DNA of 64,000 nucleotides, taken from NCBI RefSeq assembly GCF_022045235.1, contig NW_027266341.1:30318001-30382000 (forward strand), read 5' to 3'. A model generated the notes under the pieces. The model saw only the letters and a list, made by a program, of their open reading frames with translations. It did no database searches and was not told the DNA's origin. This DNA is from Haliotis cracherodii (lineage: Eukaryota). Below are positions 10,815 to 63,300 of this stretch, one piece after another. A program made the translations under genes and the position numbers. The first letter of the stretch is position 1; every line of letters starts with the position of its first letter.

Positions 10815-11929
10815 CTAGAAACACAAACAGAACAGTATTATATCTTTCATGCATGTTATAATATAAAAGATGCTAATGTTGTTGCTTTTGAAACTACTTT
10901 GATTATGAAGGTTGGTGCTGTCATGTGAGAAAGTGTCTTGGTGAGAGTGTTCGACAATCCCTAAATTCTAAATCAGGTCAATACCACTCAGTGACTGAGT
11001 CACAAGATGTATAAGAATATTTGCCTTTTAAATAGAAGAGAACTGTTCCCGAGTGGTTCCGGGAAACCACTACAAACCTATAGTTGAAAAATAAAATATT
11101 TCTGATTGCAATAAGTTAACACATATATATATTAGTTTCTGTAAACAATAATTCAGTTTGTAATTGTCCTTTTTTTCTTTTTTTTTCAACTTTTTATTCA
11201 GTCATTACACATGATACATAAGCACTTGGAGAGCAATGCAGTTTTACGAATATCGATCTTTCTCAAAAGGATATGGTACAGAGGAGGCCTAAAGCATAAT
11301 CCACATCATGGTACAGAAGAGGACCATGAGGTTTGTAATTGTCCTTGCTGAAACAATCTGAATCTGTGTGTGTGTATTCCCGTATGAAGCAATGGGTTTA
11401 ATGGTTGCATTACCATTAAAACATTACTTAACAAATATTGACAATTCTTTGACTACAATATTACTTTGATTTATCTTTCCACCTCCGAAACAAATTTCAT
11501 ATTTAAGTATGTTTTCTTATTGAAATGATTGTGAACTATTCAGCAAATATATACAGTTGTTTCTCAAGTTCCTGTTTTCTTGCTTGTGATCATGAATTGT
11601 TTCTAAATATACACAAATGATTTAATATTCTCATTATCTATTTCTATATAGTTTACAATATTGTCTTGTTCGTGAAATAACGCAAGAGATGGAAATTCTT
11701 CTTCCTTGCTTAAAGACATATCTTTCAATTTACTGTTACATTCCTGGTAGTAATCCTAGCGAAAATATAAAGCAAAAAAAAACCAAGACATCCCTTTGTA
11801 ATTGTCTCCTGAGTAATCACTCAGTTTAGTCGATGGAATGGTCAACATCCTGATATTTTGTCAGGAATTTATATTCTATGTACTGTCATGATTACTTTGA
11901 TACTTTGATAATATTGATGTAAGATGCTT

Positions 11930-26200: not shown

Positions 26201-27559
26201 CTAAGTCAGGGGCGGGTCAAGAGGGATATCATAGTATCAAGAAATAACTATAAAATAACTGCCACTACTGTTTACCATCTACAAAATGGTTCTTTTTCTG
26301 TCTGAAAATGTATTTCAGGGATGCACCTCCTGATGTTATCGGATTTTGAAATGCATTCCTGAAGGCGATATCAGTTGTGTTTCAAGTTGTTCCACATAAG
26401 CATTGAACAGTGTAAAGGATATTTGGGAGATAAACAATGTTGAGCTAGGTTACCTGTAGATTTAACCGCGCTAATTAGATTTTGGAACCGAACGCGCAGC
26501 ATTGAAAACACAGTATGTTTATCACCATTCTACCATGACTAAATAAACCGCGAACTCTTTTGTTGAGTCCAATGTTTTGAGTGGGTTGTCTATCTGAATT
26601 ACGGAATTACTGACAACAGGCTGTAAGCCAAATATGGCACTGTATATGTTCAAGCAGTTTGTTTACACTGTTATACTTCACTCGAATATATGACATGCAT
26701 TAAAAGCATATATGCACTAAAACTTTGTAAGCTAACATGACGTGGGCATCCCTAAAGAAAACTGACCAAACTTTGAACGTCATTCGTTCTACACCGCACG
26801 TCACCATTATCACGTCATATCGCTCATTGTGACGCAAAAGATATGACGCCACAGTCGTGTATAGTACAGCACCAAATTCCATTTGTACTCTGTAATTGTA
26901 GGTATAACGATTTAAATATGCTACCAACAATGACTGCAAAAAAGTATTTTTCTATAATTATTAGCTAACGCGGTGATGCGGCCGTCAAATCAGCTATTTC
27001 AGAGGGGGTTTATTGTGATTTAATAGCGAGAATCGAGTAATTTCTAAATTCATGGTAGAATAACTGTTATCTTATAGGTGTGGATTATTATCAGACAATA
27101 TTCTATGATGTTGTCACTGTACATGACCCCATAAACAAGGGTATCAGTTACAAGCGAACTATACAAAGAAAAGTTTTAAGTTGTATTTCGGTGTGACTGA
27201 TGACTTCATTTAGGAGATAATAAACATACCGTGTTTTCAGTTTTGCAAGATTAAATTGAATTTGGACCCTAACATGCTGCGTTATGTCAATTCAACCATG
27301 ACAAAATAAAACGAGAACTCTTTGTTCTAAGCAAAGACATTGAGTGAAGCGGCTTTGGTTGAGTCCATTGTTTTGAGTGGGTTGTCAATCTGAAATACGG
27401 AAACCCGGATAATGAAATAAATATGGCGTTATATTTGCACAAACAGTTTTTGACACATCGTAATACATGTACGTCACTCGCCTATTTGCCAGGCGCTGAA
27501 AGTATGCAACACACAGTATTTTGTGACCCAGTTACTCGAACACAACTTTAAAACATACT

Positions 27560-31400: not shown

Positions 31401-33905
31401 TACAGGCAAGGTTGAGTAAGCTACTACCATGGTCATTCAGCAGTGTCAGGTCAGCCTCCTCTAATACGAGAAGATCAAACACACTTTTGTGTCCTTTATA
31501 AGCTGCTACCATTACCGGTGTATGGCCATCCTGTCCTCTACTATTGATGTTGGAAGGTGACACAACATGTTGTACTATAGCTGTGTTACCACCATAACAG
31601 GCAAGATGGAGTAAGCTATAGCCTTGGTCATTATGCAGTGTCAGGTCAGTCTCATCTGAAAATAGGATATCAAACACACTTTTGTGTCCTTTAGAAGCTG
31701 CTACCATGACTGGTGTACATCCATCTTGTCCTCTTCTATTGATGTTGGAAGGTGACACAACATGTTGTACTATGATTGTGTTACCACCATCACAGGCAAG
31801 ATGGAGTAAGCTATCACCATGGTCATTCAGCAGTGTCAGGTCAGCCTCCTCTGATGCGAGGAGATCAAACACACCTTGGTGTCCTTTATAAGCTGCTAAC
31901 ATGATTGGTGTACATCCATAACTTCCTCTAGTATTGATGTTAGAAGATGACACGATGTCTTGTACTATAACAATGTTACCACCTAAAGATGCATAGTGTA
32001 CTACTGCATTCCCGGACTTGTCCTTAATGTTCTTGTTTGATATTGATTTCAAAATCTGGTAACAGTCATTGGATCCTGCGTTTGCTGCTTCCATGAGTGG
32101 AGTCATGCCTTCATCATCTACGGAGTTCATTACAACAGTCTTAAAGAGGTCGCTGTTGTGTTCTTGTAACACATTTAGTATCTTCTGCTGTCCTGTCCTG
32201 CACGCTTTATGTATGATGGTCTTGTAATTTCCAGCAGTAGTGACTGTATCGCCACCTTCTCTTAAGAGATACAAAAGTGTTTCAGAACTTCCATGCACAG
32301 CAGACAGCAAAAGCAGGCGATGCAAGGTGATACCAACGACTGGATGTTCACATCTAGAGAAAAGCCACTTTAACAATGTCACATTGTTTTTAAACACACA
32401 ACCTTCAAAGGATTCTGTGATTTCTATTTGTGTAAATTTTTCACCAGTTTCTTTTTCAATACCTTTGGCAAACTTTGAACTATGTCCAAGTACAGTCCAA
32501 TATAAGATACTTCTCCCCATGTCTCTTTTGTGAAACCAACTTTCTTCCATGGATTCATCAGGCTGGAGCTTTTCAAGAAGTTGGAGAACTATTTTGTCTT
32601 GCCGGAGAATGGGGTGTGTCACTGATTTGGAAAAATGCCCATCTTTTATTGATTTTGCAAGCCGTGTGGTCAGAATGTCATAGTAACTTTCTGAGATGTA
32701 GATGACATGAAGGTGTTCATCAATCTCGGTTTCTGATACTGGCCGGGGTTGTACTCTCTCATATATGAAGTTGTCACTGCAATGAGTCAGCACAAATGTT
32801 GGGCTGATGTCATACAACGCACAAGCACAGGCATCATAGATCGAAGAGTGGGCAAATCCTACAGTATCTCCGCTTGTGAAGAATGTTCCCCTGAAGCCCT
32901 TTGCTGCTTCGTATATTCCTGCACGTGAAGCTTTTGGGAACAATTCTAACACAGTTCTAATCATATTGTCCAGTGCCTCGTCCTTTCCTGCCGATTCCAA
33001 CTTGGCCAAATCTAACTTCTCCTCACACAGTAGCATAAGAACCAATATGGCTGATCGATCAGTTTTTGATCCCAGTAAGCTTTTAAGTTCTAATCTAAGA
33101 TAAAGCAGTGGTTCCTTGAAAAAGTTCATCATATGTTTGGAAAAAGATGAAAATTCAAAAAATAGTTTACAAGTAAGTGGAAATCCAAACACAGAATCGA
33201 CGTCCCACGGGGCGCATTGTACCATGTCTTCAAAATCTTTGTCATTTTCATTACCTTCATGAGAACACTTTTTGTGGAGGTTCCTATGTTTCTCAAATAT
33301 TGCTTTCTTCTCTTCTTGAGTATATCTTTGTTTCGTTTGTTTTGTTATATCCACCACTGTTTGTCCCTTGAACAACGAGAACCCCTCATACTGCATCTGG
33401 GCAAGCCCATCATGGAAGTTGTAGGTCTTGGATGTGAACACAACACGGATATCCTTCGAAGGTTTTTGTGCTGGGTCAGAAACTCCACTAGCCTCCTTTT
33501 CACCTCTTTTCTTAGCTGGATGATTTCTGAGTGAATGTTGTTTCCTTAAATCCTTCTTGCATCGCTGTAAGTGAGGAAGAAGCTTACTCAAAAATAGTTT
33601 CAGTTGGGAAACATCTGTAGATAGTCCAACCGATCCAAACATATCGTCTATGATAAGAAATACTCTAGGTGATGAACTCAAGAAGCTATCCAAGTCAAAC
33701 TGATCAATCCTGTCCACAAACGCCAGCTTGTACCCGTTTCTTCTGTACTGTGAGCCCAACATGAGAGCTGTCGTGGTTTTCCCTTCTCCTGAAGCACCAC
33801 AGATGGTGACATGGCCAAGTTCCTCCAAGTTTCTTTTTGCAGTTCTAAAGGCATTAGCTTCAACAAAGACTTCTTCTGCGTCACTTATTTGTAGGTCAAG
33901 GGTAG
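28459..33905 (-). CDS. STAND NTPase (nSTAND3-like) + ~38 ankyrin repeats, copy 2, intact large terminal exon (NLR-like architecture)
   Basis: 1831-aa open frame with Walker A GASGEGKTT, Walker B FLIIDDMFG, VVFTSK, GFPL, GFAHSSIYDAC, then about 18 units of a 65-aa double ankyrin (TPVMxAAxxGH / SLLHxACxGG). Homology with copy 1 begins at the acceptor ttttctgttttcatttcaag| before 33905, so the ORF start at 33954 is probably intronic. Confidence 0.9.
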
Positions 33906-35639
33906 CTTGAAATGAAAACAGAAAATCATTATATCTTTCATGCAAGTAATACAATTAGAGATGTTAATGATGTGTCGTTTTCAAACTACTTTGTTATAAA
34001 TAATAGGAAGGGACTGCCATATGAGAAAGTGTTTTGGTAAGAGAGTGTTCGGCAATCCCAAAATCTAAAGTAGGCAACAGCTTCTGCCAGGACAATCCCA
34101 TAATCCCAAATGGTGCCAGACTCGCAAGTTGCTTTAAGTACTATTGGTATTCTAAAGAAGGATTGTTCCACGAATCCACTCCAAACCAACAGTAGACATA
34201 ACAAATGAATATCTCTAGATGAAATAAGTAAGCTCATATAGAATATAGTTTCTGCAATTGATTTTGTAATTTTCATTGCTTGGAAGAACATTTAAAATTT
34301 GTTTGTCTATTAAATGGTGTTATGGCCACTAGCACATTATTTAACAAATATCGACCCCATTTTGACTGAAATAATACTTTGATATATCCTTGCATCTCCC
34401 AAACAGATTGAATATCTATCTATGTTTTCTTTATGTTTTTCTTAACTATTCAGTAAATTTATAATATTGTTTCTCAAGTTCCTTTTTCCCTATTCACTGA
34501 CGTGTACATATGACGAACCAGACATGAAGGTTAAAATATCTATTAGTATGTAGGTTTGAAGGATGTAGGCGTGTGTCACAAAATGGACAATAGAGAAGAT
34601 GAACCTTTTGAATGTCCAACAGAGTGTGTAAATTCGGTGTGTGTGTTGTTGGCAAATATAGAATGCACAAATTGTAAACCCATTAAACCTAGTCTGTCCC
34701 AGTCAGCTGTCATCCAAAGTATGGATGCCCTACGTGAAACATTAGTACTTGATCCCACTGACAAGGCCGCAATTTAACGTTACCGCAATATGTAAGCATC
34801 CCGTCATTTCTTGTTAGATCAGAGAACTTGGTAAAAGTGACATATATATAACACGACATATAAGACCAGTATGTCCACTGGGGAAGAAAGTTCATAAAAC
34901 CACACAACAGAAGCATCAACTTCTGGCTTGACTTTAGAACTTGAAAAAAAGTCCATTCAGCTTTTGTACTGGATTCCAAAGGTCCATAAACATCTGTACA
35001 GATTATGTTCAATTACATTCATTGAATCTTTTCTGAAAACCTCGATGTAAAACTTTGGTCTGCAAGTCCGCTGGGACGTTACATCCACTAACTGAATCAG
35101 ATATACTGGCACAATAGAAGTTGGCTAGGGGATGATTTCTAACATTCAAAAATACTGTCGTTTTTTCAGCAGTAACATGGTATAGGACACTGTTTCAAGA
35201 AAGCTGATCCTCTCTCATTCCAGACACTCTCTCATACAGCGCCATGGTCTTATCACTTTGTCCATCCTAGTTCTGCACGTTAAGGGTAATCGGGATGTTG
35301 TGACATTGTCAAGTTGAAAAACAGACATTCAATTTATGATGAAATTGACATTAAATCATAAATTACATATATAGAATAATAAACGACCTATGGGGAATAA
35401 CCGATTATCTGTCCCGAGTGTATAAATGGTGTTCTTACAGCATTCTGTCAAGGGGTAAAGATAATCTGTAATTCCGAGTTTAGAGTAGGTTATTCTCTAT
35501 ATTACTAATTGTTATTTTAAGAGAGAACATGAAGAAACACATATAACACTACAGACAAATTTCACTGAAGGCATCCTATTGTTCAGATGACTTAATGAAA
35601 TGAATTTGTGACGTTAACAGTGGATGATGTCATATGGTT

Positions 35640-46641: not shown

Positions 46642-47116
46642 TAGGGCTGGGACGGGTAACTCGGGTACTCGGGTCGTGTAGGTAAAGGACTATCTGGACC
46701 CATGGTTCTTCCTGACTACTACGCCCATTCCTTCTGACTTTTAAGGGGCGGTCGGGTAGCCTAGTGGTTAAAGCGTTCGCTCGTCACGCCGAAGACCCGG
46801 GTTCGATTCCCGACATGGGTACAATGTGTGAAGCCCATTTCTGGTGTCCCCCGCCGTGATATTGCTGGAATATTGCTAAAAGCGGCGTAAAACCATACTC
46901 CGTCAGTCAGTCTGACTTTTAAATGTTTGAATAAAAATAAAACTTCAGTGTCATTTTATACATGTATCTAAACACATTTTACCAGAGCTACGGTCAAACT
47001 TTTCCCAATGGGACAGTTTGTACCTACCTCTTGAGACCTACAGCGGGTACCCGAGTAGGGTCGGGTAATAGGGGGGTGGGTACCCGGGTAATAAATTTGG
47101 ACTCTTCCCAACCCTA
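46642..47116. mobile_element. Non-autonomous hAT-type MITE
   Basis: TIRs tagggctggga and tcccaacccta, exact 8-bp TSD GTACCTAG at 46634-46641 and 47117-47124, subterminal cgggta repeats. Confidence 0.85.
46745..46910 (+). mobile_element. tRNA-Asp-derived SINE nested in the hAT MITE
   Basis: tagcctagtggttaa (A box), gtcacgc (GTC anticodon), gggttcgattccc (B box), (agtc)n tail. 12-bp TSD tctgacttttaa at 46733-46744 and 46911-46922. Fragments of the family occur at 38380-38460 and 58540-58595. Confidence 0.88.
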
Positions 47117-47350
47117 GTACCTAGGGTCCAAACTGTTGAAGATCAGCAACGTCTTCGATGCCAGAAGCATCCCGCCATGGTAGCATTTATGATGCAGAGT
47201 CAATGTAGAGACGACTGCACACGTCTCATGCCGATTGTTGGTAATGGGAGATGGTAAATGTGCATCAGTTTAAGCGTGGAGAAGGTAGTATGGAACCAAA
47301 AGGCGACTGCCACGGGGTGGACAGCAGCTGTAGAAGTACATTGTGCTGGG

Positions 47351-47903
47351 AGTAGTTGTCTACATCAGTCAAGGACCGCTCAGGATTTCAGGACTAAGAT
47401 GGCGGCACATCCGTTTCCGGTGGCGTGCGCCTCCAAGATGACGTCCCATCCGTTTCCGGTGGCGCGCGCATCCAAGAGGGCGCCCCATCCGTTTCCGGTG
47501 GCGTGTGCACCTCAAAGAGGGCTGCGCCTCCGTTTCCGGTGGCGTGCGCCTCCAAGAGGGTGTCGCAACGGTGTCCGGTGTCGTGCGCACCTCCAAGAGG
47601 GCGTCGCCTCCGTGTCCCGTGGTGCGTGCACCTCCAAGAGGACGTTGCCTCCGTTTTCCGGAGGAGGAGGAGGAGGAGGAGGGAGGGAGGGAAGGGGGAA
47701 AAAAACCCCAGGGAAGCGGTCGTAAAAGGTGAACAAGAAAAGAGTTTTGTTGTTGTTGTTGTTGTTCTAAACATAGACGTGTTGGTGGTGGTGAAGGGAG
47801 GGTGGTGGTGAAGGGAGGGAAGGAGGAGGCGGGTTCATGGTGTGGGGGTTTGAGGGTCGTCAAAGCAAAGGATGAAAGCGTTCTTTCGGGAGAGATGGGT
47901 GGC
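47351..47903 (+). repeat. Left TIR (553 bp) with six 39/41-bp GC-rich subrepeats
   Basis: Reverse complement of 56907-57404. Subrepeat ccgtttccggtggcgtgcgc(a)cctccaagaggg at about 47411, 47450, 47489, 47530, 47569 and 47610. Confidence 0.93.
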
Positions 47904-47921
47904 CCTGAAAAGGGCCGTTTT
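47880..47921 (-). terminator. Histone-type 3' stem-loop plus purine-rich downstream element
   Basis: Minus strand AAAAC-GGCCCTTTTCAGGGCC-ACCCA-tctctcccg-AAAGAAC. The 6-bp stem/4-nt loop spans 47901-47916, 21 nt after the stop of ORF 47938-48231. Confidence 0.85.
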
Positions 47922-47937
47922 GAAGAAGATGACTTCT

Positions 47938-48231
47938 TTACATGCAGGTGCACGCAACGGTACAAAGGCACGGGTGGACAGTCATTTGGCGTCTTACAGG
48001 ACACCTATTGGTGTGCGTTAAACGACGCATGTAGGTGTCCTTCAGCACAGTGCTGCAATACACGCATTTGAAAGTCCGATCCCATGCCCTTGTACCAAGG
48101 GCGTACACGGGCAGGCACCCTTGGCATCTACCACATTGCCATGATGGAGACAATGGTGGGGATGTTATTATCTTAGTAGAAATCAGTTCCAGATCCCAGT
48201 TTTCAGACATGTTGTTGCTGTTGCTGCTCAT
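47938..48231 (-). CDS. Small Cys-rich (CxxC...CxxC Zn-ribbon-like) protein, 97 aa
   Basis: ATG about 50 nt after TATAAAA of promoter cassette A. CGRC and CVYC pairs. The stop is followed by the histone-type stem-loop. Confidence 0.6.
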   Translation of the reverse strand: MSSNSNNMSENWDLELISTKIITSPPLSPSWQCGRCQGCLPVYALGTRAWDRTFKCVYCSTVLKDTYMRRLTHTNRCPVRRQMTVHPCLCTVACTCM

Positions 48232-48251
48232 GATGATGATTTCTTTTTACA

Positions 48252-48548
48252 AGTGGCACTGATTCACTTGAATCCACACTTGTTTTATAGGAGAGCCACT
48301 GACACCCTGCTTCCTGGTTGGTTCCCCAGGCAGCAGCTCCGATTGGTTCGTTCCGGTGCCTGGCCTGCACCTCGGTTTTCCAAAACGGACCGACCCCTGT
48401 GTTTCTTTTCCATAGGAAATGGATTTTTCCATGGGAGAGAAAGCACAACCCCGGTTCGACCATTCAGAGCCCAGCGTGGTCCGAGCGCCGACTCTGATTG
48501 GTCGACAACCCAGGCTTCTGATTGGTCCGATTTTGATCCGTTTTTTTT
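48252..48548 (-). promoter_or_regulatory. Promoter cassette A (multi-CCAAT + TATA)
   Basis: TATAAAA at 48289-48283, several gaCCAATc boxes, core aaatccatttcctatggaaaagaaacac. Homologous to cassettes B, C and D. Confidence 0.75.
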
Positions 48549-48689
48549 CTTGGATAGCCTTGTTTTTTTTTTAGGTAGACGGTCGTCTGAATGCTAAAGG
48601 TGGACCGTCATAGGTAGGCATGAACGTGGGGGAATGTCTTCAAACAGACGTTAACGTTGATCCATAGAATGATGATACCATGCCTACGC

Positions 48690-48996
48690 GATTACGTCAT
48701 GTTGCCAGACACACGTGGTGTTTCACGCGTGTTGTCAGGCAAAACGTGATGTCATGTGTTTGTGTGACTACAAACGTTGATTAAGTATTGAGATGGATAG
48801 AGAAAGATCGATACACATGCGTGACGTTTGCACACGTGATGTACTTCGTGTCGTGTACTTCAAATTATTATTAATATTATTTAATGATACCGAGGTGTTG
48901 ACACTCGTGTAGGTCTACAGACGTACTTTGACACGTGTTTTCATGCACACGTGTTGTTTGACTCGTGTCTCCATTCACACGTGGTGTACTACGTGT
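48690..48996. promoter_or_regulatory. CACGTG (E-box) / ACGT-core cluster
   Basis: CACGTG at 48712, 48833, 48932, 48948 and 48978, plus TTACGTCA (48692), TGACGT and ACTCGTGT variants. Confidence 0.5.
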
Positions 48997-49138
48997 CTCT
49001 ATTTATATATTTATATATATTTATATCTATTTATTTTATTTTGAGACGTACCATGGTGGTGTCACGCGTAGACGTATGCCTCCAAGAGACCTAGGGATTG
49101 TTTTGGATTGTGGGTTTGGCAAAGCAAAGGATGAAAGT

Positions 49139-49180
49139 TGTCTTTTGGGTGAGATGGGTGGCCCTGAAAAGGGCCTTTTG
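49139..49180 (-). terminator. Second histone-type 3' stem-loop plus downstream element
   Basis: Minus strand CAAAA-GGCCCTTTTCAGGGCC-ACCCA-tctcaccc-AAAAGAC. Stem-loop at 49160-49175, downstream of the BIR gene. Confidence 0.85.
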
Positions 49181-49410
49181 GGGAAGAAAAAACTTTTCTG
49201 CTGCTGTCCAAGAAGAATCATCATGTCCAAGCTTATGACAAGACAAGGATCGTCGAAGCGGTACTTGTAGCCATCTGGGTATGTCATCTGGGTGCCCTAC
49301 GTGACACCACTTGTGGGTCCAACAAATAAAATAAAATAATTTTAACAGGAACTTGAACGGGAACTTGAACGGGAACTTGAACAGGAACACAGGACACGGG
49401 AAACGTCCTC

Positions 49411-49865
49411 CTAGGCAGCCGACCGTGCTACGTTATTCGTGTACCTCTGTTTCTCTTCGCAGAGATAGTGTAGCTGTAGCTTCTTCTTGTGTTTCACCAG
49501 ACCTGGTAGCTTGAGGTAGTCGCAGTCTGGGACCACTTGTGATGTGCCGCCCAAGGATCGTCGTGGGACGCCCATTGTCTCAGCCGCACACCACATTGGA
49601 AACAGCACACACCATCGGCACCCTGAGTGTAGACAAAGCCCGCATGGGCCATCTCTTCAGCAGTCTGATACATTTGCGTTGGCCACGCCTCAAACGAAGC
49701 GAGCCTTCTTTCAAAGCGTAGATAATAGTGCGATGGCGTGTGACTGAGCAGTGACATCGCATCCTCAGCATGCGTACTCTTACTCCAACATCCACGAGTA
49801 TCTGCACTACCCATCACCACATCTCCGTCACGAGTCGTCGTACCACTCTTCTTTGTTTCAGCCAT
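49411..49865 (-). pseudogene. BIR-domain (IAP-like) gene 1, frameshift before the last Zn ligand
   Basis: RRLASFEAWP...EMAHAGFVY...DGVCCFQCGVRLRQW...DDPWAAHHKWS. The expected PDCDYL is in the adjacent frame (ORF 49411-49608). Confidence 0.85.
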
Positions 49866-49889
49866 TCTTGATTTTATAAAATAAATTTT

Positions 49890-50190
49890 ACAAGTGACAC
49901 TGACCCACTCGAATCCTCTCTTGTTTTATAGGAGAAGAACCGGATTGAAAATCGCTGCTTCCTGGTTGGTCCAAAACGCAACGCACTGATTGGTTCGTTC
50001 TGGTGCCTGGCCTGCACCTCGGTTTTCTAAAACGACCCGACCCTTGTGTTTCTTTTCCATAGGAAATGGATTTTACCATGGGAGAGAAAGCACAACTCGG
50101 CTCGGGTGCTGTCTTCTGATTGGTCGGTGCTGTCTTCTGATTGGTCGACAACCCAGGCTTCGGATTGGTCAGATTTCGATCCTGTTTTGG
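49890..50190 (-). promoter_or_regulatory. Promoter cassette B (multi-CCAAT + TATA), between divergent BIR1 and PolB
   Basis: TATAAAA at 49930-49924 and CCAAT boxes, including a 21-bp tandem gtgctgtcttctgattggtcg. Homologous to cassette A. Confidence 0.75.
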
Positions 50191-50263
50191 GGAAGGGTTG
50201 TCCATAAATCAGACGTTCAGTCCATCTTAGAGTACAGACGTTCATCAGACACGCATCGCTATC

Positions 50264-53075
50264 ATGACGAGCAACCAAAGTACGCCCTATCGTTTGGAGA
50301 GGAAAGACACCACCTGCTCCAGACGGTTAAGAACTGCTAATCATATGTATTGTTTGACTTTCAACCCAGACTACTTGGACACCGTACCACTGGACTGCGT
50401 TCTCATGGAACTGCCAGCTTTATTTGACAGAGTGATCGATGACTTTTATCAACAGATGTCAGGTCAGAAGTGAGATCGTATTGGTCTAGGTATCGATCAT
50501 CCCGCTTTGAACACTCCCATACGGATTCCCTTTTGTCGCTTTGAAGATCTCCATGGGCTTAATATTTTACATGCCGTGGAAAACGTCCAACAGTCCAACA
50601 AAGCCCTGAACATCGATGCCACCATGGTTGTGACTTTAGTACACATAGCAGATCCCGACAGGCTAGGATCGGGCAGTGGTGCTCCCCGACTGAAAGCCTT
50701 TTTAACACGCAAAAAGTGCATTGTACGGATGCCTCTACCAGAGACTGTTGTACAAGTGTGATGAGGCTCCACCCCACGCCACCGTGCTGCATGTATATCA
50801 TCATGATCAACACTACGATGTCATCACTTCCATGCCAGCTTTTTATGGGTCTAACCATTACTGCGAACGCTGTGACCACCGTTACGACCATCCCGAAAAA
50901 CATCCCTGCACCAAGGAATACCGCTGTCACCGCTGCCTCCACTCTAGCTATTGCGGACCCAAGGAAGAGCATGGGATCCCTTGCTTGACATGTCAACGTT
51001 GGTTCCCAAATCAACAGTGTTATACACGACATCTCCAGTCACCATCAGAGGGAAAACCCAGCGCCTGTCAATTGATTCACAGGTGCCCGACCTGTTTTCA
51101 GCTGGTCCACGTCTTGGAGACTCCCATGGCTCACCACGAGTGCTCAGATGAAGAACATCCCTGCTTGGTGTGCCGAGAACCCATGACCCCAGACCATCGT
51201 TGTTACATGACACCTCTCCGTGAAGAAAACGAGGCTGAGGAGGGGGAGGAAGAGGAAGAGGGGGAACAGGGGGGAGGAGGAACAACATCACCTACGAGAC
51301 AATGTCCAATACATCTTCTACGATTTTGAATGCATGCAAGACTCCAGTATGCACTAGCTCCATTATCTAATGGAAACGGACCCCCATCTGCACCTCCAGC
51401 ACGCCAGGAATGGAGGTGAAAAAGAGTTCACGTGTGGAGAGGGCCAACATCGGTACAGTGTGGATGGCTACGATCCAGCGACAGGCACCATCTACGAATT
51501 CCTGGGCTGTTTCTGGCATGGGTGCCAGGCCTGTCACAAGACCCAACGTGGAGAACCTCATCCCGTCCTGGGCACGTCGTTGGGAGCCCATTATACCGAC
51601 ACCAACTACCGCTTGAGTCTCTTGACTCAACGCCCTGAGGTGAAACGGAGTTTACAAAAATGCAACAGGGGGACTCCGCTCTGCATGCTTTCTTGCAGGG
51701 GTCCCAATGTATCGACGTCCCTGGGCCGCTCAACCCTTGCGACGCCTTCTATGGAGGACGCACCAATGCCACACGATTATGCTACGAAGCCCAAGAAGGT
51801 GAAACCATCAAGTACATCGATATTTGTTCCCTTTATCCATACATTTGTAAGACCGGAGCATTTCCCACGGGACACCCGACCCTTCTCCATCAACCACCTG
51901 TGGACATGTTGTTTGAACTGAAAGGCCTGATCCAATGCCGTGTCCTACCCCTGAAACGACTCTACCATCCGCCTTACAGATCGGGTGGCAAACTGCTCTG
52001 TCCTTTGTGCCGTACGTGTGCCGATACCAGGTCAGACTCCCCCTGCGAGCACACGACCGAAGAGAGGTCATGGGTGGGCACGTACGCCACCGTAGAACTC
52101 CAGGAAGCCGTGAAGAAGTATGATTACCAGGTGCTTCAGATCTACGACGTATGGCATTTTGACACCTTTGCAAAGCATGACCCCGACACCCAGCAAGTAG
52201 TACTCTTTGACACTTATATCGATCGTCATTTCAAGAAGAAGCTCGAAGCCAGCGGATACCCCGAAGGCTGTACGGATCACGACGCTTACATCCAGGAGAT
52301 CTGCGACAAAGAAGGCATTGGGTTGGACAAGGACCGCATCGAAAAAAATCCAGGACGTCGCACGATTGCCAAGAAGCAACTGAATTCGTTCTGGGGCAAG
52401 TTTGGACAGTCAGAACATCTATATGAACGATCCAGTACAGTACTTTGCCTTGTGGAGGAATGAACGCAATACCATCGAGGATGTTACCGTTGTCAACGAA
52501 CACATGGTGGAAGTGACCTATACCCAGCAGAAAGAATTCCAAACCCCTCATTCTCATTTCAATGTTGCCATCGCTGCTTGGGTCACTGCACAAGCACGTC
52601 TCAAGCTGTACGAGACCCTTGCCCTGGTGGGCCGCAGGGTCTTGTACTTTGACACGGACAGCGTCAGTTACATTCATCGACCCCACAACGCGAATCCAGA
52701 GCTGGGACATTCGTTGGGCGAGTTTACAGACGAACTGGACCGAAACACCATCAAGACGTTTGTGTCAGGAGGTCCCAAAAACTATGGCTATGAGTTAATG
52801 AACCCCAGACCCGATGTAACGCGCACGACCTGCAAAGTGCGAGGGTTCACTTTGAATTACAGAAACCAACAACATCTCAACTTTGACACCATGAAAGGGC
52901 TGATACTGGGATAACGGTCTGGGAAAGAGGGGGAGAAATCAGTTTGGATTACCCTCTTGTGACCCGACCCATCCGAAAAGACTACCGTGTACGACAAGCA
53001 CGTCTCGTCTACGACGAAACCACAGGGCTGCCTGTAGACACGCTCCCCTTTGGGTACAGAGACGACTTTCTATAA
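50264..53075 (+). pseudogene. polB: Protein-primed family B DNA polymerase (Polinton pPolB), frameshifted and internally deleted
   Basis: HYDVIT + Cys/His-rich N-terminus, FYDFEC (ExoI, ~51315), VDGYD...YEFLGCFWHGC (Vsr-like insert), FYGGRT, YIDICSLYP, AKKQLNSFWGKFGQ, VLYFDTDSV, GPKNYGY, KVRGF, and terminal TLPFGY with stop at 53073-53075. Confidence 0.93.
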
Positions 53076-53137
53076 ATAGTTCATACCATTGGGGTATCAC
53101 AGCGGATCGAAACTGAATCAACATGGACCCCTACAGA

Positions 53138-53375
53138 AAAAAACGGATCGAAATCTGACTAATCAGAAGCTTGGGATTTCGACCCATCAGAGGCCGCGCT
53201 CGGGCCATGGTGGGCTCTGATTGGCTGAAACGAGGTTGTGCTTACTCCCTCACACTACAAGCCTAACCCTATGGAAAAGAAACACAAGGGTCGGTCCAGT
53301 TTGGAAAAATTGAGACTCAGACCACACACCGGAATGGACCAATCAGAAAGCAGGACCTCCCTGCCTTTTAATACG
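53138..53375 (+). promoter_or_regulatory. Promoter cassette C (diverged copy)
   Basis: aaaaaaacggatcgaaatctga..aatcagaagc...cctatggaaaagaaacacaaggg...ggaccaatcagaaagcagg...ttttaata, upstream of ORF 53575. Confidence 0.65.
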
Positions 53376-53574
53376 ACCAATGCTCTCCGGTCATTACTTT
53401 TCACTGAACGGACCAAGCAACAACATCGTCCCTCTGATTGATGTTCCTCACGTTGTGTTGGCTGTTGGCGTTTTATCTGGAAGAAACACGTGTTTGGAGA
53501 GAGTACCATCAAGTGTTGACACACATCCGTGAAGACTTGGAAAGAAAAAACAACGAACAGAAAATCCGGACATC

Positions 53575-54595
53575 ATGTCGAAACGGTTGAATGCCAAGAC
53601 ACGGAGCGACATGGGTGGTAAAGGAAGCAGTGGAGATGGGAGCGGTGAAATGACTGCTGAACTGTGGGGTGAAGTGTACGACGTGATGTGTGCAAAGATA
53701 AAGACCGACAACGTATACGCCAAGTTACGTGCGAAGGCCGACGAAGTGATGTGCGACATGATACGTTCGAGGATAAGGCAATCGAAGGACCCCAAGAAAG
53801 TAGCACCGAAGACGAAGATAATGAAGACCCAGAAGATAAAAACAAGCAAACCAGCAGCAGCAGCAGCAGCTGCAGCGATTACCACCACCACAGCAGCAGC
53901 AGCAGCAGCAGACACCGAAACGAAGGGGACATCCTTTTTTAAACCTGCTACACCTGCAACGCCTGCAAAACGACGACCACGGAAGAAATTGTCTCTGAAG
54001 ATCTCTCATCAAGAACAACTGTAAGTACCATGCTCTTCTTTGTCTCAGTCATTCTTGATGTGATGATGATGATGATGTCGATGTTGATCGTGAGTATGAC
54101 TATTCATATGACTGAGTCTGTCCTATGATTGACAGGACCCCTGATGTCAGTTCAGCCAAGTCCGTGCTAGAACAGTGGTGGGAACAAACCCCTCGGGAGC
54201 CAACCTATTCACCGAATGCACCTGTGATGATGACGCCCGGTGACAGTGATGATCATGAAGCGCTCAAGCTGGCAACTCTCCCTTCCATGGATCTGGACAC
54301 ACCCACTCTGCTTGATGCTTCTTGGTCACCAGCATCACCGGAAGATGTCCTCTCCTCAGGTATGCCCATGGTTTGCGACGATGATGATGATGATGATGAC
54401 AACGTTGACGACGATCCTTATGGAGAAGCTCAACTCACTCCCCTACAACGCGAATGTAGTACCTGCCGACACAACAACATGTTAAGATACATCAGCTGCA
54501 ACAGTGGTCAAGTAATGTGCCATGTCTGTTTCAGGGAGGCCATACCTGTTCTACTGAGGACCAAACATGGTTGGGACCTGTTTGGGACTGTTTGA
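53575..54595 (+). CDS. Two-exon gene (53575-54020 + 54136-54595), 301 aa: K/A/T-rich basic region, acidic tract, C-terminal CxxC...CxxC
   Basis: Intron 54021-54135 (CT|gtaagt...gacag|G) joins ORFs 53575-54024 and 54125-54595 in frame. NLS-like KRRPRKK, poly-D, CSTC...CHVC. Confidence 0.65.
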
Positions 54596-55218
54596 TGGAG
54601 GACCACATGTTATGGTGACCCCATCTTCACTCGAAGAGCTTTACAACACATAAGCTGCAACAGTGGTCAAGTGATGTGGCATGTCTGTTTCAGGGAGGTC
54701 ATAGACTGTACTTGTTTAACTGATGGACCTCTCACATGTTTGATGGAGGACCACATCTTATGGGCTTGAAGATAGAAGAGCTTGAAGATGGAAGAGGAAA
54801 CGTTGTCGCGTTGTTGTTGTTGTTGTTGTTGTTGTAGGGACATGCAAAGCACTCCCTCCTCCATTGTCTTTTCGTATTTCCAATGTATCTGGTTGTGATT
54901 GCTCATTATTAAACAGTGATTGATTGATTATATAGTATAAATAGATAAAAGAGAAAGGCCATGCTTGAAAGATCAGCTGCCTGGTGTCAGTCATTCCAGT
55001 ACAAATCACCACTACCACCGTGTGCCATGTCATGTGTCATGTCATCTATCATGCCGTGTGTCAGTCAGCCCAAACACAGGATGATGTCACGTGATGAGGT
55101 GGAGGAGGTGGAGGAGGTGGAGGCTAAGGTCATGACCTTCCATTGAAGGGGGTAGGGTGGAGAGTTTCATAAAAGCAGGCGAACCCTCAGACCTTCTTTC
55201 AGTGAAGTCACAGTTATC

Positions 55219-55864
55219 ATGGAGCAAAGACGTTCTATGAATGCCATGTCATCCTCCCGAGATATTGTCACCGATTCCAAGTGGGAGTCTGAAAAGGCGG
55301 GAGAACAAGAAGCGAGAAAACGCCCACTCTTTATGGACGATACACTCTTGACTCACATGGCGACTCAGTGACATTCTGGAGATACCTTTTCCTTCTTACA
55401 CCTTGTGTCATCCTTCTCATCCCAACTATGATTCATTTCAAGAACGTCTGAGGTCTTTTCAAACGTGGCCTAAACAGATGACCCAGACCCCTTATGACAT
55501 GGCCATGGCTGGCTATTTCTATCCAGGACGAGGTGACCGTGTTATCTGTTATTGCTGCGGTGTGACACTCTGCCAATGAGAAGCCACAGACCAACCCTGG
55601 AAAGAACATCTGAAGCACGCCAAAGTCACCTGCGAATACTTGTGTGTGTTTTGTCCTGATGGAGAAGTGAACGAAAAATACAGACGTATTTGTCCCAAGA
55701 AGCACGGAAGAGAAGAGTTGAGTGTCTTGTTCACCCCAAGTGACAAAGTTTCTTTTTTTCAAAGTGTACAGACGTTCATACCCTCGTGGTCACCCCCGTG
55801 GTCACCCCTCGTGTTCACAAAAATCACAGGGATGTCCCCCCCCCCCCCCCCCCTCATCCTGTGA
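55219..55864 (+). pseudogene. BIR-domain (IAP-like) gene 2, disrupted
   Basis: From 55409: HPSHPNYDSFQERLRSFQTWP...DMAMAGYFY.GRGDRVICYCCGVTLCQ*EATDQPWKEHLKHAKVTCEYL. TGA 55577-55579 replaces the conserved Trp. Upstream ATG at 55219 follows cataaaa. Confidence 0.85.
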
Positions 55865-55989
55865 CTTTTGTTTTGTTGTGTTGGTTCATGTGATCAGGGG
55901 GGATTAAAAAAAAAGTTGAACCCATAGTAGTGTTATGTTGTGTGTAGGATGAAGAAAAAACAAAACAGGATCGAAATGCACACCCCCAT

Positions 55990-56255
55990 AAAAACCGGAT
56001 CAAAATCGGACCAATCCAAAGCCTGGGTTGTCGACCAATCAGAGACCGCGCTCGGACCATGCTGGGCTCTGATTGGCCGAACCTGGGTTGTGCTTTCTCT
56101 CCTATGGTAAAATCCATTTCCTATGGAAAAGAAACACAGGGGTTGGTCCGTTTTGGAAAACCGAGGTGTAGGTCAGGCACCGGAACGAACCAATCGGGGG
56201 TGCTGCCTGGCGAACCAATCAGGAAGCAGGGTGTCAGTGGCTCTCCTATAAAAAC
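55990..56255 (+). promoter_or_regulatory. Promoter cassette D (five CCAAT/ATTGG boxes + TATA)
   Basis: TATAAAA at 56247-56253, 38 nt before ORF 56291. Homologous to cassettes A-C. Confidence 0.75.
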
Positions 56256-56290
56256 AAAACAAGAGCGAAGCCACTCACACACTGCATTCT

Positions 56291-56875
56291 ATGAAACCAA
56301 CCATGCCAGCTCGATACAGTTGTATGAAGTGCCAGACCGACAGTCACAGTTACCTGTACTGCCCTGAAGTGACATGCCTCGAGTGTCACGCTCAAGGTCA
56401 CCGTCACTATGTCTGTCCGAAGATGAACAGTCAAGAGAAGCAGAACCTGGGCCCCTGTTACAACTGTCAAGTCATGGGTCATTTCGCTGCAGATTGTCCA
56501 GAACCCAGTCGAAAGAAGACACCCCAGCGCCCCTGTTACAACTGCCAAGTCGTGGGTCATTTCACTGCAGATTGCCCAGAACCTAGTCGAAAGAAAACGT
56601 CAGCAACACCGTTCACGTCGACACCCGTGGCATCCGTGGCACCCATGGCACCCGTGACACCCGTGACACCCGTGACACAAGTGCTTCATCTCATAGAAGA
56701 CCTAAAAGAATGCCTCACACAACTCCGTGCAGGCATCACACCTCGTCTAGAGAAAAGAAAACGGAACAGAAGCCCCTCAAGAAAACACGCTTCAAAGCGC
56801 CAACGACACCTTCAGTCCGAGGATGAGATGGAAGTAGAGGATGAAGAAGATAGATCATCTGAACAAAGTGACTAA
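56291..56875 (+). CDS. 4x CCHC zinc-knuckle protein with basic NLS-like segment and acidic tail, 194 aa
   Basis: CMKCQTDSHSYLYC, CLECHAQGHRHYVC, CYNCQVMGHFAADC, CYNCQVVGHFTADC (all Cx2Cx4Hx4C), plus KRKRNRSPSRKH. Intact frame downstream of cassette D. Confidence 0.85.
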   Translation: MKPTMPARYSCMKCQTDSHSYLYCPEVTCLECHAQGHRHYVCPKMNSQEKQNLGPCYNCQVMGHFAADCPEPSRKKTPQRPCYNCQVVGHFTADCPEPSRKKTSATPFTSTPVASVAPMAPVTPVTPVTQVLHLIEDLKECLTQLRAGITPRLEKRKRNRSPSRKHASKRQRHLQSEDEMEVEDEEDRSSEQSD

Positions 56876-56906
56876 CGCATGGGCCATGCTGCTCCACTGC
56901 TCCACT

Positions 56907-57404
56907 GCCACCCATCTCTCCCGAAAGAACGCTTTCATCCTTTGCTTTGACGACCCTCAAACCCCCACACCATGAACCCGCCTCCTCCTTCCCTCCCTTC
57001 ACCACCACCCTCCCTTCACCACCACCACCACGTCTATGTTTAGAACAACAACAACAACAACAAAACTCTTTTCTTGTTCACCTTTTACGACCGCTTCCCT
57101 GGGGTTTTTTCCCCCTTCCCTCCCTCCCTCCTCCTCCTCCTCCTCCTCCTCCTCCTCCCCTGGAAAACGGAGGCAACGTCCTCTTGGAGGTGCACGCACC
57201 ACCGGACACGGAGGCGACGCCCTCTTGGAGGTGCGCACGACACCGGACACGGATGCGACACCCTCTTGGAGGTGCACGCCACCGGAAACGGAGGCGCAGC
57301 CCTCTTGGAGGTGCGCACGCCACCGGAAACGGAGGCGACGCCATCTTGGAGGCCATCTTGGTCCTGAAATCCTGAGCGGTCCTTGACTGATGTAGACAAC
57401 TACT
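56907..57404 (-). repeat. Right TIR (498 bp) with four full subrepeats
   Basis: Reverse complement of the left TIR; begins at gccacccatctctcccgaaagaac. Confidence 0.93.
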
Positions 57405-57410
57405 GCTGGG

Positions 57411-58200: not shown

Positions 58201-59441
58201 GACATCGAAGGTGGGCACTTTCAGGGAGTCGATTTCCTTAGTCCCAGAAAGGACTTATCCGGGGAAGATGCAGTGGACCCAATCACAGGCGCTGGTGGAA
58301 GCCTTAAAGTGTTTAGGTCATCACCCAGCATTTCAAACATCGACGAAGAAGGGCACATCTTCTGAGGTGAATCCAGTGAGAGCTGGGACACCATCTAACA
58401 AAGGCAACCTATGGACTCCACATTACTGTGATCCTTTTCTGGGGCGAAGGATCTTGTCTCAACGGGAGAGGGAGTGCGATAACAGCAGGTCGTCTGTGTT
58501 ACAAGTGGAGAGGAACAATAAGCCGTAGTTGCCGAAGAGTGAGTGAGTATGGTTTAACGCCGCTTTTAGCAATATTCCAGCAATATCATGGCGGTGTTGC
58601 CAAAGAGGGAGACAGCAAATACACACGAGGGTGGGAAGGTACTTGCCCGATACAGGTGGTTGCACAAGGTGATGACGTCGAGGCTGACTGGCGTCCCATG
58701 GAGATAGACATGCATCTCGTTGGGTACGGGAACGGCCTCTGGGTAGAGGAGTTGAGGTAACAGTCAACTGTTGTAAAGTCCAAAAGAGCGAGAAAGCATA
58801 AAGCGTGCATAAAATATGTGCCGACTCTGTCCTTTCAGGCTAGGATCATATGGCGACATATGAGGTAGAACAGCTTTCTTGACTCATACGTCCTGGGTTG
58901 AGGCGTTGGACAGGTCGTCAGTTATTGTAGAAGTGAAGCATGGAGTAAAACTCACTTTGGCCCTGGTAGAATACTGATCTACAGCAAAATACAGGTTGAT
59001 AAAATGTCAAAAACACCAACATAGTTGGCCAGCGGCAAGCTTATCCAGGTCGGTCCTCTGTTTCGTGATGAAGTGTAATGTGGAGCAAAATCACATTTGG
59101 GTGGGTGTTTCAAGTTGCAAATTGTTGTGTTTGCTTGCAAAGTTTTTTTTTATATTTTATGCGGAAAAAGAGACAAAATGTAATGTGTGAGACAGGATAA
59201 GTATAAATGGCTAGCTCAGCACACCATCACTCTTCAAATTTTATGTAACTTAATAGAGTCGAGTTTCTGAACCTGTGGACCTTGCGAAGTTGCAAAACAT
59301 GGCATCATCAAACGCACATAATTTTACTTACCACATTCATGTATAACCTGACCAATAATGTTACAGTTCTCTGCGTGTCCGCCCATCATACCAATCACTG
59401 AAACCAAGGAAGAAGATTTAATGAGGGAGTAGTGAAAAGAG

Positions 59442-59859: not shown

Positions 59860-60368
59860 TACAATGTTTGCACTTATGTAACCAGCTACAATTTAGAGCA
59901 TTGTCATATGTGCACTAATGTAGACAGCTACAAGATAGGGCATTATTATGTGTACACTTATGTAGCCAGCTACAAGACACAGCATTATTATGCGTACACT
60001 TATGTAGCCAGCTACAAGACACGGCAATATTTTGCGTACACTTATGTAGCCAGCTACAAGATAGAGCATTATTATATGTACACTTATGTAGCCATCTACA
60101 AGACACAGCATTATTATGTGTACACTTATGTAGCCAGCTACAAGACACGACTTTATTATATGTACACTTATCTAGCCAGCTACAAGATAGAGCATTATTA
60201 TATGTACAATTATGTAGCCATCTACAAAACATGGCATTGTTATGCGTACAATTATGTAGCCAGCTACAAGACACGGCTTTATTATATGTACACTTATGTA
60301 GCCAGCTACAAGACACATCATTATTATGCATACACTTATGTAGCCAGCTACAAGACACGGCATTATTA
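59860..60368. repeat. 42-bp minisatellite (continues at 63591-63715)
   Basis: Unit tacacttatgtagccagctacaagacacagcattattatgtg gives the 14-aa periodicity in ORF 59824-60369. Confidence 0.95.
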
Positions 60369-63300
60369 GAGAGAGAGAGTTTATTGCAGTAAAGGGGCCA
60401 CCGGCCCATTATACAATACATATTTCATTGATTTTTTCAATTCAATTGAGCGCCATACAATATTATACATTGGTCAATCAAAGTGACAATTAATTAATAT
60501 TGAGTTGTTTACATCTTTTTTTCATTGACAGGAAAATATATTTCGCTAAGACATTTACAGTGTAGGCATTTTGTGATGACAGTAGATGTTGGAATTTAAA
60601 AAGAGTTGGGTTTTGTACATAGTATTTCGGTAATAGACTTCTTATATCATTATAGAATGGGCATATCATACAAAATTGGTATTCAGTTTCGACACAAGGT
60701 ACGATACACAATGGACAGAATCTTTCATTCGCACTTATACCAAGTGTACGTCCGTATTCAATCATAAGTTTATGGTTTGAACATCTAAATTTAATCAGCG
60801 CATTTCTATAAGGATGTACAATGACAAGTGATAGGTATTCTTCAAATTTAAAGAGTCTTAACAGACTGGTACATTTTCAATTTAGAATATTTTGACAAAT
60901 CCTCAAACCACATTTGGTAATCAATCTCTTTACAACGCTCTTCAAACTCTGACAAAAAAGAAGTGGTATAATTAACATTTTGGTTTTTCAGCAATACTGG
61001 CAATGATAAATTTCTAAAATCATTACATTGGGAGCGCATTGTATTCAAAACCTTGGACATTTGAAAAGACAGAGTTTTCTGTGTTTTATACCAGGAACCA
61101 CTGATAGAGAACTGAACACCTAAATATTTATAGGAAGGAACTATTTCTAATGGTCTATTGTCGAGATAAAACTTTTCATAGTTCCTAAGTCTACCACCTT
61201 TTCTTAAAACAACTACTTTTGTTTTCTCAACATTAACACAGAGGCTCCATTTTTTACAATAAACAGATAATTTGTCAAGTCTTTTTTGTAGACCCTTTAC
61301 TGTGCTATCGAAGAGTGCCATGTCATCTGCAAACAGTAACATAAAAATATTACAAATGCCCAGTTCTATACATCTGTCCTCATCTACATTCAAAAAATCT
61401 ATAATATCATTAATATACAATGAAAAAGTAGTGGAGATAGTTGGCATCCCTGTTTCACACCATTTAAGCAGTTGTAAAACCATCCTGCAGTGAAATACAT
61501 GACTGAAAATTGGAATACATATTTCTAATAAGGCGAAAAACACTTCCTTTTATGTTGTACAACCAAATCTTATATAACATACTTTTTCTATTAATTGAAT
61601 CAAATGCAGCTTTAAGGTCAATAAAACAACAATATAATCGACTTTTATACAAAGCAAAGTATTTAGCGATCAATGTATCTAAAATAAAGATGTTGTCCAG
61701 TGTTTGAAATCCATGTCTAAAACCAGCTTGTTCAGGGATAAGAATATCATTAGTTTCAACAAATTTGGTCAGTCTGTCACATATAATTTTAACAAATATT
61801 TTACCAGAAACTTCCAATAAAGTTATGGGGCGATAATTTTTAGGATTGTTAACATTTCCTTTTTTATGAATTGGAAGTATTGCATCAAGTGACCACATAG
61901 ATACCAGTTCTCAATACTGCATTGTATAAAGTCAGTAATAGGTTAACGCAAGCAAATGGAGCATTTTTGAAAAAGTCAATTGGTATACAACTATATCCTG
62001 GAGCTTTGCCCTTTTTCATACCTGAAATAGCAGCAGTAATTTCATCATAACTAATATCTCTATCTAAATCATTCGTATTTACAGTTGTATCTATCAAATC
62101 ATCGGTGATTGAGTCAATAAAGTCCATTATGCTTTCAAAAAAGGATTGTTCATCAGGTGAAGTGCTTATGCTATTAAAGTGGCTTTCAAAATGTCTTATC
62201 CACTCAGCAGGTGTAATAACTGGGTTAGTGAATTGTCGTTTTCCCTTTAGAATTGACCAGAATAGTTTGTTGTCCCTATTAAGAAGGCTCTCCTGAAGTT
62301 TTTCCTTTTTCATATTGAGAGCACGTGTACATTTCAGGTGACATAAATGTTTGTATGATTTCCATGCTTCGATATAGGTGAGGCCGTCGCGTGTACAGTT
62401 AGTTGCATGAAATGCACGAAATTTACGGCGTGCGTCACACCTGGCTTGGTAGCATTCCGCATCACACCAGTTATGTCCCTTGTTGACTGTGGATACAGAC
62501 GGTTTCTTGAAGTCCTTTGAACATGACAGTAGCAAATCGTGGAATGTTTCAGCCACTTCCTCGACACGCCCACATGCTGCTATTGTTGTTATTTCTTGGA
62601 TAGAATGATCCGATTTTAAATTCCAATTTTCAGTGTAATTTACCATTTTGTTCTCGTTCCAGACATATCTTGACTTTTTAGATAATGTATCGTTGGTCAA
62701 CTTAGGTGATCTATATCCCTTGAACAAGACAGAGTATGTGATAGGAAAGTGTGTGGATTCAACTTCGTTACAAATATTGAAACTGGTAAACTGGTGAAAT
62801 ATGTTATTTGAGCACAAAACATAATCTACAACGCTTTGGCCCTCATTCACAACACAAGTTATTTTCCCAATGTCTTTATCTTGAAACAAACGACCATTGC
62901 AGATACGGAGTTCATTTTTCTTTCAAAAGTCTAACAATGACTTTCCCCTTTTGTTTACATTTTTGTCTTGAGATATTCTTGGGGCGGGTTCATCCATTAT
63001 ATAGTTTATATTTTCGTCAATTGGCAAATAGGTGGTATCATCATTTTCTAAATAGTCTGCTAAATTCCCAGTTCTGGCGTTAAAGTCACAATGTAGAATG
63101 AATTCACAATTTAGGAAAAGAACTTCGAAACGTATCAATATCCTCTTCTAGAATATCAAACAATTGTTCCTTTGAGTGTGAGCTGGTTGACCCTTCTGGA
63201 GAGTAATACACAGTGCCTATCACCACAGTAATGTTTAACTGAAGTTTTATCCACTGGACATTATCTGTTTTAGTACAGCCATGTAATTCACAGACGTTAG

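Follow-up and report, generated by a model that had tools for sequence, protein, structure and literature searches.

How did a Polinton that retains both ends and an exact target site duplication (TSD) come to lack its integrase, packaging ATPase, protease and capsid genes? This question is raised by a locus of the abalone Haliotis cracherodii, analysed here within a window of 64,000 nt (NW_027266341.1:30,318,001-30,382,000 of assembly GCF_022045235.1; all coordinates below are positions in this window). The element occupies positions 47351-57404 (10,054 bp). The history that we favour, at slightly less than an even chance, is that a copy of a multi-copy abalone Polinton family integrated at this site and was subsequently eroded in place through deletions. 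In this scenario, an RVE integrase would have inserted a family member, generating the 6-bp duplication; a deletion of ~7 kb right behind the pPolB stop codon would have removed a contiguous block of ATPase, PZ, PW, protease, capsid and integrase genes; and many smaller deletions, frameshifts and stops would have killed pPolB and the genes encoding BIR domains. Two accessory arms would then remain, both composed of recurring cassettes that combine a CCAAT/TATA promoter module with a short gene. The outward-facing units end in a histone-type stem-loop and a downstream element, through which SLBP and the U7 small nuclear ribonucleoprotein (snRNP) could yield a non-polyadenylated, S-phase-type mRNA.

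The ends of the element are those of a Polinton. The outermost 44 bp on both sides are perfect inverted copies that begin with AGTAGT (ACTACT at the other end), matching the (AGT)2//(ACT)2 variant of the two terminus types reported for Polintons, the other being (AG)3//(CT)3 (PMC8097293). They are flanked by GCTGGG on the left (47345..47350) and on the right (57405..57410), an exact 6-bp duplication that has a chance of ~2.4e-4 at the given ends and falls within the 5-8 bp expected of a Polinton TSD. The left terminal inverted repeat (TIR; 47351-47903, 553 bp) comprises the AGTAGT end, a 45-bp unique tip, a minisatellite (47396-47661; 6.6 units of ~40 bp) and a G/A-rich inner part, and the right TIR (56907-57404, 498 bp), with the ACTACT end, includes 4.6 units of the ~40-bp minisatellite (57165-57352). 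Both TIRs lie within the range of 100-1,500 bp given for Polintons (PMC10748475), and the total length of 10,054 bp lies below the 13-25 kb of complete elements. Hairpin folding of the TIRs was no better than that of shuffled sequence (z -0.32), and no second copy of the element was found within the window.

When the flanks are joined with one copy of the TSD, a minus-strand frame continues without a stop for 261 codons ahead of the site and for 48 codons beyond it (the other frames are open for only 63/24 and 10/26 codons), so that the element represents a genuine insertion into one continuous coding target. The interrupted sequence (47119-47344 and 57411-~58500, minus strand; GC 0.48-0.49; ~309 codons of coding sequence) had no match in Pfam, PHROGs or PDB and is probably another decayed mobile element. 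A piece resembling a tRNA-derived short interspersed nuclear element (SINE) is located near this target, at ~58540-58600.

The absence of the core genes required more than a standard domain search. A six-frame Pfam search of the element recovered only DNA_pol_B_2, BIR (twice) and zf-CCHC, and no helicase or RNA polymerase domain. As a proof of absence this search was dropped because it is blind to the MCP type of related Polintons: when Pfam was applied to 21 fetched Polinton contigs, integrases scored, capsid proteins were missed, and ATPase and protease barely scored. The Pfam negative being too weak alone, we built our own profiles with controls, from 79 integrase (INT) and 66 major capsid protein (MCP) sequences (together 145 of 150 matches; the other five were left out because of their length or because they could not be assigned) and from 3-6 ATPase, protease (PRO), minor capsid protein (mCP), PW and PZ sequences each, and searched them against 996 six-frame windows of the element. 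No core-gene remnant was detected, with a best E of 1.1 or worse. Neither an RVE integrase (best E 2.7; 174/176 held-out 40-aa control fragments detected) nor an MCP (best E 4.3; 200/202 such fragments detected) was found, and the same holds for the packaging ATPase (best E 3.5; 40 of 44 leave-one-out 80-aa control windows detected) and the adenain protease (best E 3.9; 17 of 19). The mCP profile reached a best E of 3.5, with just 18 of 37 80-aa windows recovered in its leave-one-out control, and PW and PZ gave no match (best E at least 1.1) with profiles that carry no sensitivity control. The absence of INT, MCP, ATPase and protease is thus firm, that of mCP, PW and PZ less so. Likewise, when 178 open reading frames (ORFs) of the 21 fetched loci were compared with the element by tblastn, none of the matches listed outside pPolB and its antisense frames fell below E 0.01.

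The 21 contigs (L001-L021) are animal-type Polintons located inside GTDB bacterial genome bins, five of them in one Endozoicomonas bin, and represent eukaryotic contamination of these bins. One of them, L004, carries a TBP-like gene (7189-7695, minus strand; Pfam TBP, E 1e-27) beside the integrase.

A sequence-only reading of this locus had described AGTAGT termini, TIRs and an exact GCTGGG duplication, had taken the element for a Polinton without integrase, packaging ATPase, protease or capsid genes, and had proposed six-frame profile searches for INT, ATPase, PRO and MCP as a check. The perfect 44-bp inverted ends, the TSD and the profile searches with controls, in which degenerate core genes failed to appear, bear out this description. 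The gene orientations that it reported also hold: gene A and BIR1 in the left arm point leftward, and pPolB, gene C, BIR2 and gene D point rightward. Its statement that the ends enclose only pPolB plus accessory genes stands as regards the missing core genes and is overstated as regards pPolB, which is itself destroyed.

The pPolB gene (50264..53075, plus strand; Pfam DNA_pol_B_2) is of the type with a Vsr-like insertion, as in mollusc Polintons, and its best relatives are Haliotis gene models (among the best 120 of 287 matches). Thirteen of these models are 83-92% identical to the window sequence, three others are merely 52-56% identical, and proteins from oyster, clam, insects and snakes are 42-49% identical. 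Compared with the 13 close relatives, the gene contains three stops (50471, 51355 and 52912, the first at codon 70), five frameshifts and ten deletions, of which the two largest, at 50731 and 51348, remove ~89 and ~352 aa, respectively; these lesions relative to close relatives speak in favour of decay in place. The ~352-aa deletion takes out most of the exonuclease region (motifs II and III). This region is present in 11 of the 13 family models, and the other two begin behind it, so that the loss is not family-wide; the N-terminal ~89-aa block is present in both family models that reach that far. Small differences could stem from the gene models of the relatives, but the two large deletions do not. 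The intact pPolB of the family has an estimated length of 1,422 aa, and its exonuclease insert differs among family members by tens of residues. A basic stretch of gene D resembling a nuclear localization signal (56726-56809) shares 62% identity, over 29 aa, with residues 541-569 of the family model P0020, which form part of an insert inside the exonuclease region of the family's pPolB; we take this likeness to mean that sequences have been shuffled inside the element.

TIRs and a pPolB gene without virion genes also resemble the layout of a self-replicating, linear-plasmid-like element maintained by its own polymerase, an option raised in the sequence-only reading. For the present copy, this explanation fails and has a negligible chance of being correct: with a stop at codon 70, five frameshifts and the exonuclease region gone, in contrast to the 11 of 13 relatives that keep this region, the polymerase is not makeable and a plasmid-like replicon is excluded, and the copy is integrated with a TSD. 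Linear plasmids and transpovirons share with the element the TIRs and the lack of virion genes, and transpovirons are characterized by a helicase fused to an inactive pPolB (PMC5499653). The element differs from them in having no working pPolB, helicase or RNA polymerase domain and in being integrated with a TSD.

The accessory genes belong to the same family as the pPolB. All 23 right-arm protein matches are from Haliotis (17 to gene C, five to gene D and one to BIR2), and gene C is matched exactly by the H. cracherodii model P0121. Black abalone is thus the most likely host, and these genes are family-wide components rather than chance captures. The gene C cluster to which the present copy belongs has one member, compared with up to 37 in sister clusters; hence there is no sign of a recently amplified twin.

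Could the whole family natively lack integrase and virion genes, as a satellite with its own pPolB helped by another abalone Polinton family? Of 143 gene models (13 of them the family pPolBs), none shows a core-gene fusion at the family level, and a nemertean protein gave one weak INT match of 33 aa; however, such fusions are not expected if the block lies on the opposite strand. Table S3 of PMC10748475 lists 125 H. rufescens rows for GCA_003343065.1 (identified as H. rufescens through PMC9048639), and most of these pair a ~957-bp, low-scoring integrase directly with a pPolB of 1,230-1,280 aa. The family with the ~957-bp integrase is a different, abundant abalone Polinton type. None of the integrase-linked H. 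rufescens pPolBs in that table is 1,422 aa long, which would agree with a native satellite, but rows of 1,360-1,399 aa with a linked integrase could represent our family, given its length variation. The table as provided contains no rows for the two black-abalone assemblies, perhaps merely because these were not included. An integrated Polinton-like virus lacking an integrase is known (PMC11296320); by contrast, the relatives of the same pPolB type carry the core block. On balance, we consider a native satellite improbable.

Under the favoured reading of loss by deletion in place, the missing block has an expected position. Only 28 bp (53076..53103) separate the pPolB stop codon (53073-53075) from promoter-like module C, and this spacer is the putative site of the core genes. 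In six of the six fetched loci with at least three core genes, all these genes are downstream of pPolB, and in vertebrate Mavericks a pPolB-ATPase-PZ array converges with an INT-mCP-PW-MCP-PRO array, flanked by accessory regions (PMC8097293). Since related Polintons hold the core genes in one block behind pPolB, a single deletion of ~7 kb at 53076-53103 would explain every absence; the spacer and this gene order support the earlier proposal of a deletion at the junction of PolB and cassette C (~53075-53140). Among the 125 H. rufescens rows of Table S3 (PMC10748475), four are PolB2 elements in which the distance from the end of pPolB to the end of the integrase behind it is 6.8-7.2 kb. Adding this distance and the pPolB deletions to the element would give a full length of 18.3-18.7 kb.

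Recombination between the four repeated ~300-bp modules of the element is a conceivable route of this deletion. The same repeats, 71-93% identical, could in principle have caused an assembly collapse that made the element appear short. This explanation is very unlikely: the window contains no N bases, the modules are short and diverged, and many small lesions are not at repeats.

The strongest competitor of decay in place holds that the loss came before integration. In this case, the core block, and perhaps the function of pPolB, would have been lost first, and the proteins of a complete family member would have mobilised the derivative in trans by acting on its intact TIRs, making the element a cargo carrier of accessory cassettes. 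We regard this as a serious possibility, though a distinctly less than even one. Indirect tests point both ways. The unique parts of the TIRs differ at only 1-2 of 305 sites, below the prediction from pPolB decay (P 0.02), so that near-identical ends and an exact TSD contrast with heavy internal decay. The outcome of this TIR-versus-gene clock depends on the minisatellite: with it included (9 differences at 478 TIR sites), the combined test gives P 0.15 in place of P 0.02. The changes at conserved pPolB codons (4 of 125) fit the divergence of the whole TIRs (P 0.27), and the lack of non-slippage indels in the unique TIR parts is unremarkable (P 0.24). Mobilisation in trans therefore gains nothing significant from the whole-TIR clock, which might moreover be biased by conversion between the TIRs or by CpG decay in the gene.

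Several further observations weigh against deletion in place. The junction is clean, with 28 bp free of any core-gene remnant, a result that random deletion would rarely give. At another locus, pPolB and module C are brought together in the H. cracherodii model P0003; this link, however, is a predicted intron of unstated length. Only two of 3,228 candidate gene models are fused to module C or gene C, and the pPolB join is found in one of these two; the other, in which the N-terminus is unrelated, matches no core gene. The reading frames of genes A, C (exon 1) and D are all open, and genes C and D together carry one disabling lesion compared with 4.7 expected (P 0.05), fewer than pPolB and the BIR genes. 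The linkage of the core genes to this very family is drawn from relatives and stays conditional, and the PolB2 elements used for the size estimate encode pPolBs of 1,524-1,527 aa, compared with the 1,422 aa estimated here, and could belong to another family. Insect Polintons that lack polB are reported to be still mobile (bioRxiv 10.1101/2025.02.07.637071), in line with mobilisation in trans. Against it, there is no annotated near-twin, the closest pPolB models being 83-92% identical and the gene C cluster consisting of one member.

Compared with known Polintons/Mavericks (Polintoviricetes, adintoviruses), the element shares the ends, TIRs, 6-bp TSD, pPolB and accessory regions that flank the core; it differs in its length of 10 kb rather than 13-25 kb, in the absence of INT, ATPase, PRO, MCP, mCP, PW and PZ, and in its dead pPolB. 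Defective copies are common, making up 96% of 3,511 vertebrate Maverick loci (PMC8097293), and MCP, PRO and ATPase are jointly missing in 9 of 72 Polintons (PMC4028283). Integrase loss is not part of the available description of these capsid-less Polintons, whereas the present element also lacks the integrase while both ends are nearly perfect. The polB-less insect Polintons are similar in having intact TIRs, in the loss of an essential gene and in the retention of cargo, and differ in that integrase and virion genes are kept and polB is gone; the structure described here is known from one locus. Missing core genes alone thus matter little, defective Mavericks being the rule, and on this loss alone the locus is mostly an ordinary defective Polinton, with an open chance that it represents a helper-dependent subfamily. 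If the structure were multi-copy, it would be a defined helper-dependent Polinton and would reveal the cis sequences sufficient for replication and integration. Non-autonomous Polinton 'N' families are present in Repbase; our literature search gave no paper dedicated to them.

The accessory arms, with repeated CCAAT/TATA cassettes and stem-loop ends that go beyond the sequence-only reading, weigh more than the loss of the core genes. Four promoter-like modules of ~300 bp, 71-93% identical to one another and all containing an invariant AAACACA, are distributed along the element. AAACACA is reminiscent of the histone H1 promoter box. Module A (48245..48546, minus strand) contains CCAAT boxes, AAACACA and a TATAAA 58 nt upstream of the ATG of gene A; module B (49886..50188, minus strand) is placed head-to-head between BIR1 and pPolB; module C (53104..53380, plus strand) is the most diverged, at 71-79% identity to the others, with no clear breakpoint when examined as a mosaic; and module D (55963..56253, plus strand) is 93% identical to module A.

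In the left arm, gene A (47938..48231, minus strand) is a single ORF encoding a 97-aa Cys/His-rich protein that looks zinc-finger-like by eye and has no family match; a similarity to a zinc finger of L004 (9/25 identities, E 0.019) was rejected as too weak to indicate homology. BIR1 (49411..49865, minus strand; Pfam BIR) is a single-BIR, IAP-like gene in which the end of the domain shifts to another frame near 49540. In the right arm, gene C (53575..54770, plus strand) encodes a low-complexity protein with a Cys-rich C-terminus, its 3' end is duplicated (54489-54625 and 54648-54770), and it has no match in Pfam and no usable match in Atlas. At least 17 Haliotis model clusters represent this gene, several of them named as isoforms, so that gene C is a spliced and apparently transcribed Polinton accessory gene. 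BIR2 (55219..55740, plus strand), also a single-BIR gene, is broken, with frameshifts near 55357 and 55692 and a stop at 55577 relative to P0131, and gene D (56291..56875, plus strand) encodes an open 194-aa zinc-knuckle (CCHC) protein.

Two matches to the Rfam Histone3 family (RF00032), both above the gathering score of 34 bits, run in the sense of the left-arm genes. The first (47875..47921, minus strand; 35.8 bits) has its stem at 47901-47916, starting 21 nt past the gene A stop; the second (49135..49180, minus strand; 37.7 bits) lies 235 nt past the BIR1 reading frame, so that its assignment is less clear, and it may belong to BIR1 or to a lost gene. Both fold into a GGCCCT-TTTC-AGGGCC hairpin followed by ACCCA and a purine-rich downstream element. 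A degenerate third site behind gene D (56876..56935, plus strand) mirrors the first, with the 3' half and the downstream element kept and the 5' arm gone; the motif is complete in H. rufescens, where model P0125 reads through it. The strict stem-loop pattern occurs 0.01 times per shuffled element. The second stem-loop is located inside a duplicate of the inner TIR segment (49105-49187) that is older and diverged (85%). In the adjoining region 48700-49090, CACGTG occurs five times, together with an AT-rich tract and a single word of the TIR minisatellite (GCCTCCAAGAG); this region has the appearance of an element end of older date that has become buried.

The same hairpin was detected in L004 (RF00032, 35.8 bits; chance 0.04 in 167 kb), 28 nt past the outermost, outward-facing C2H2 zinc-finger gene and followed by a AAAAAAGAGA stretch, in a Polinton whose pPolB is only ~35% identical to that of the abalone element. 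As a general Polinton trait the stem-loop was rejected, L004 being the only one of 21 fetched loci to show it; many of the other 20 end before the arms. The three purine-rich elements (GAAAGA, AAAAGA and that of L004) are candidates for pairing with abalone U7 small nuclear RNA.

These units share with replication-dependent histone cassettes the 6-bp stem, the 4-nt loop, ACCCA, the purine-rich element, a short single-ORF gene and a CCAAT/TATA promoter. They differ in that the ORFs are not histones (zf-C2H2 in L004, BIR and zf-CCHC in the abalone element, with gene A assigned to no family) and in that the processing is a prediction. Histone mRNAs are non-polyadenylated, stem-loop-ended transcripts that terminate 4-5 nt past the stem, an end said to be confined to replication-dependent histone genes (PMC10730174). 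Capture of a histone-gene tail, retained as junk or as a generic terminator, would account for the hairpin itself, but not readily for its position right behind a non-histone stop in two distant elements or for its duplication inside one of them. The element may borrow the host machinery for histone mRNA, and the family most likely ends these mRNAs via SLBP and U7 snRNP, which would link them to S phase.

More broadly, we see even chances that some animal Polintons express accessory genes for small zinc-finger and IAP-like proteins from histone-like cassettes, with stem-loop-ended mRNAs processed by SLBP and U7 snRNP and expression tied to the host S phase. This would put the histone 3'-end pathway to a non-histone use in a virus-like element. 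The boldest extension, in which the present 10-kb copy serves to carry such cassettes and depends on a helper, we consider unlikely. Our literature search found no earlier report of a histone-type stem-loop in a Polinton, although subscription papers were mostly outside this search and a prior mention is possible; the available text of PMC8502044 lacks the term 'stem-loop' and that of PMC8097293 lacks 'histone' and 'hairpin'. The occurrence of the stem-loop downstream of non-histone genes in two Polintons offers a cheap test for the use of SLBP and U7 by a virus-like element, and the stem-loops provide a first handle on the timing of Polinton gene expression, which has been largely unknown so far.

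Elsewhere in the window, two long host genes on the minus strand (5341-10872 and 28459-33954) combine an NTPase-like N-terminal part with arrays of a 195-bp ankyrin-type repeat, present in 36 copies in two clusters; the first gene is broken by a stop at 9196. Next to the interrupted target, a small TIR element (46646-47118), presumably hAT-like, is flanked by an 8-bp duplication (GTACCTAG on both sides) and contains a tRNA-derived SINE (Rfam tRNA, 46750-46821). Tandem arrays of the 42-bp type at 3245-4089, 24458-26204 and 59871-60368 give rise to long spurious ORFs. Transposase pieces at 19-471 and 16229-16999 are Tc1-like, and reverse transcriptase pieces at 60848-62922 derive from a long interspersed nuclear element, both families having been assigned by eye.

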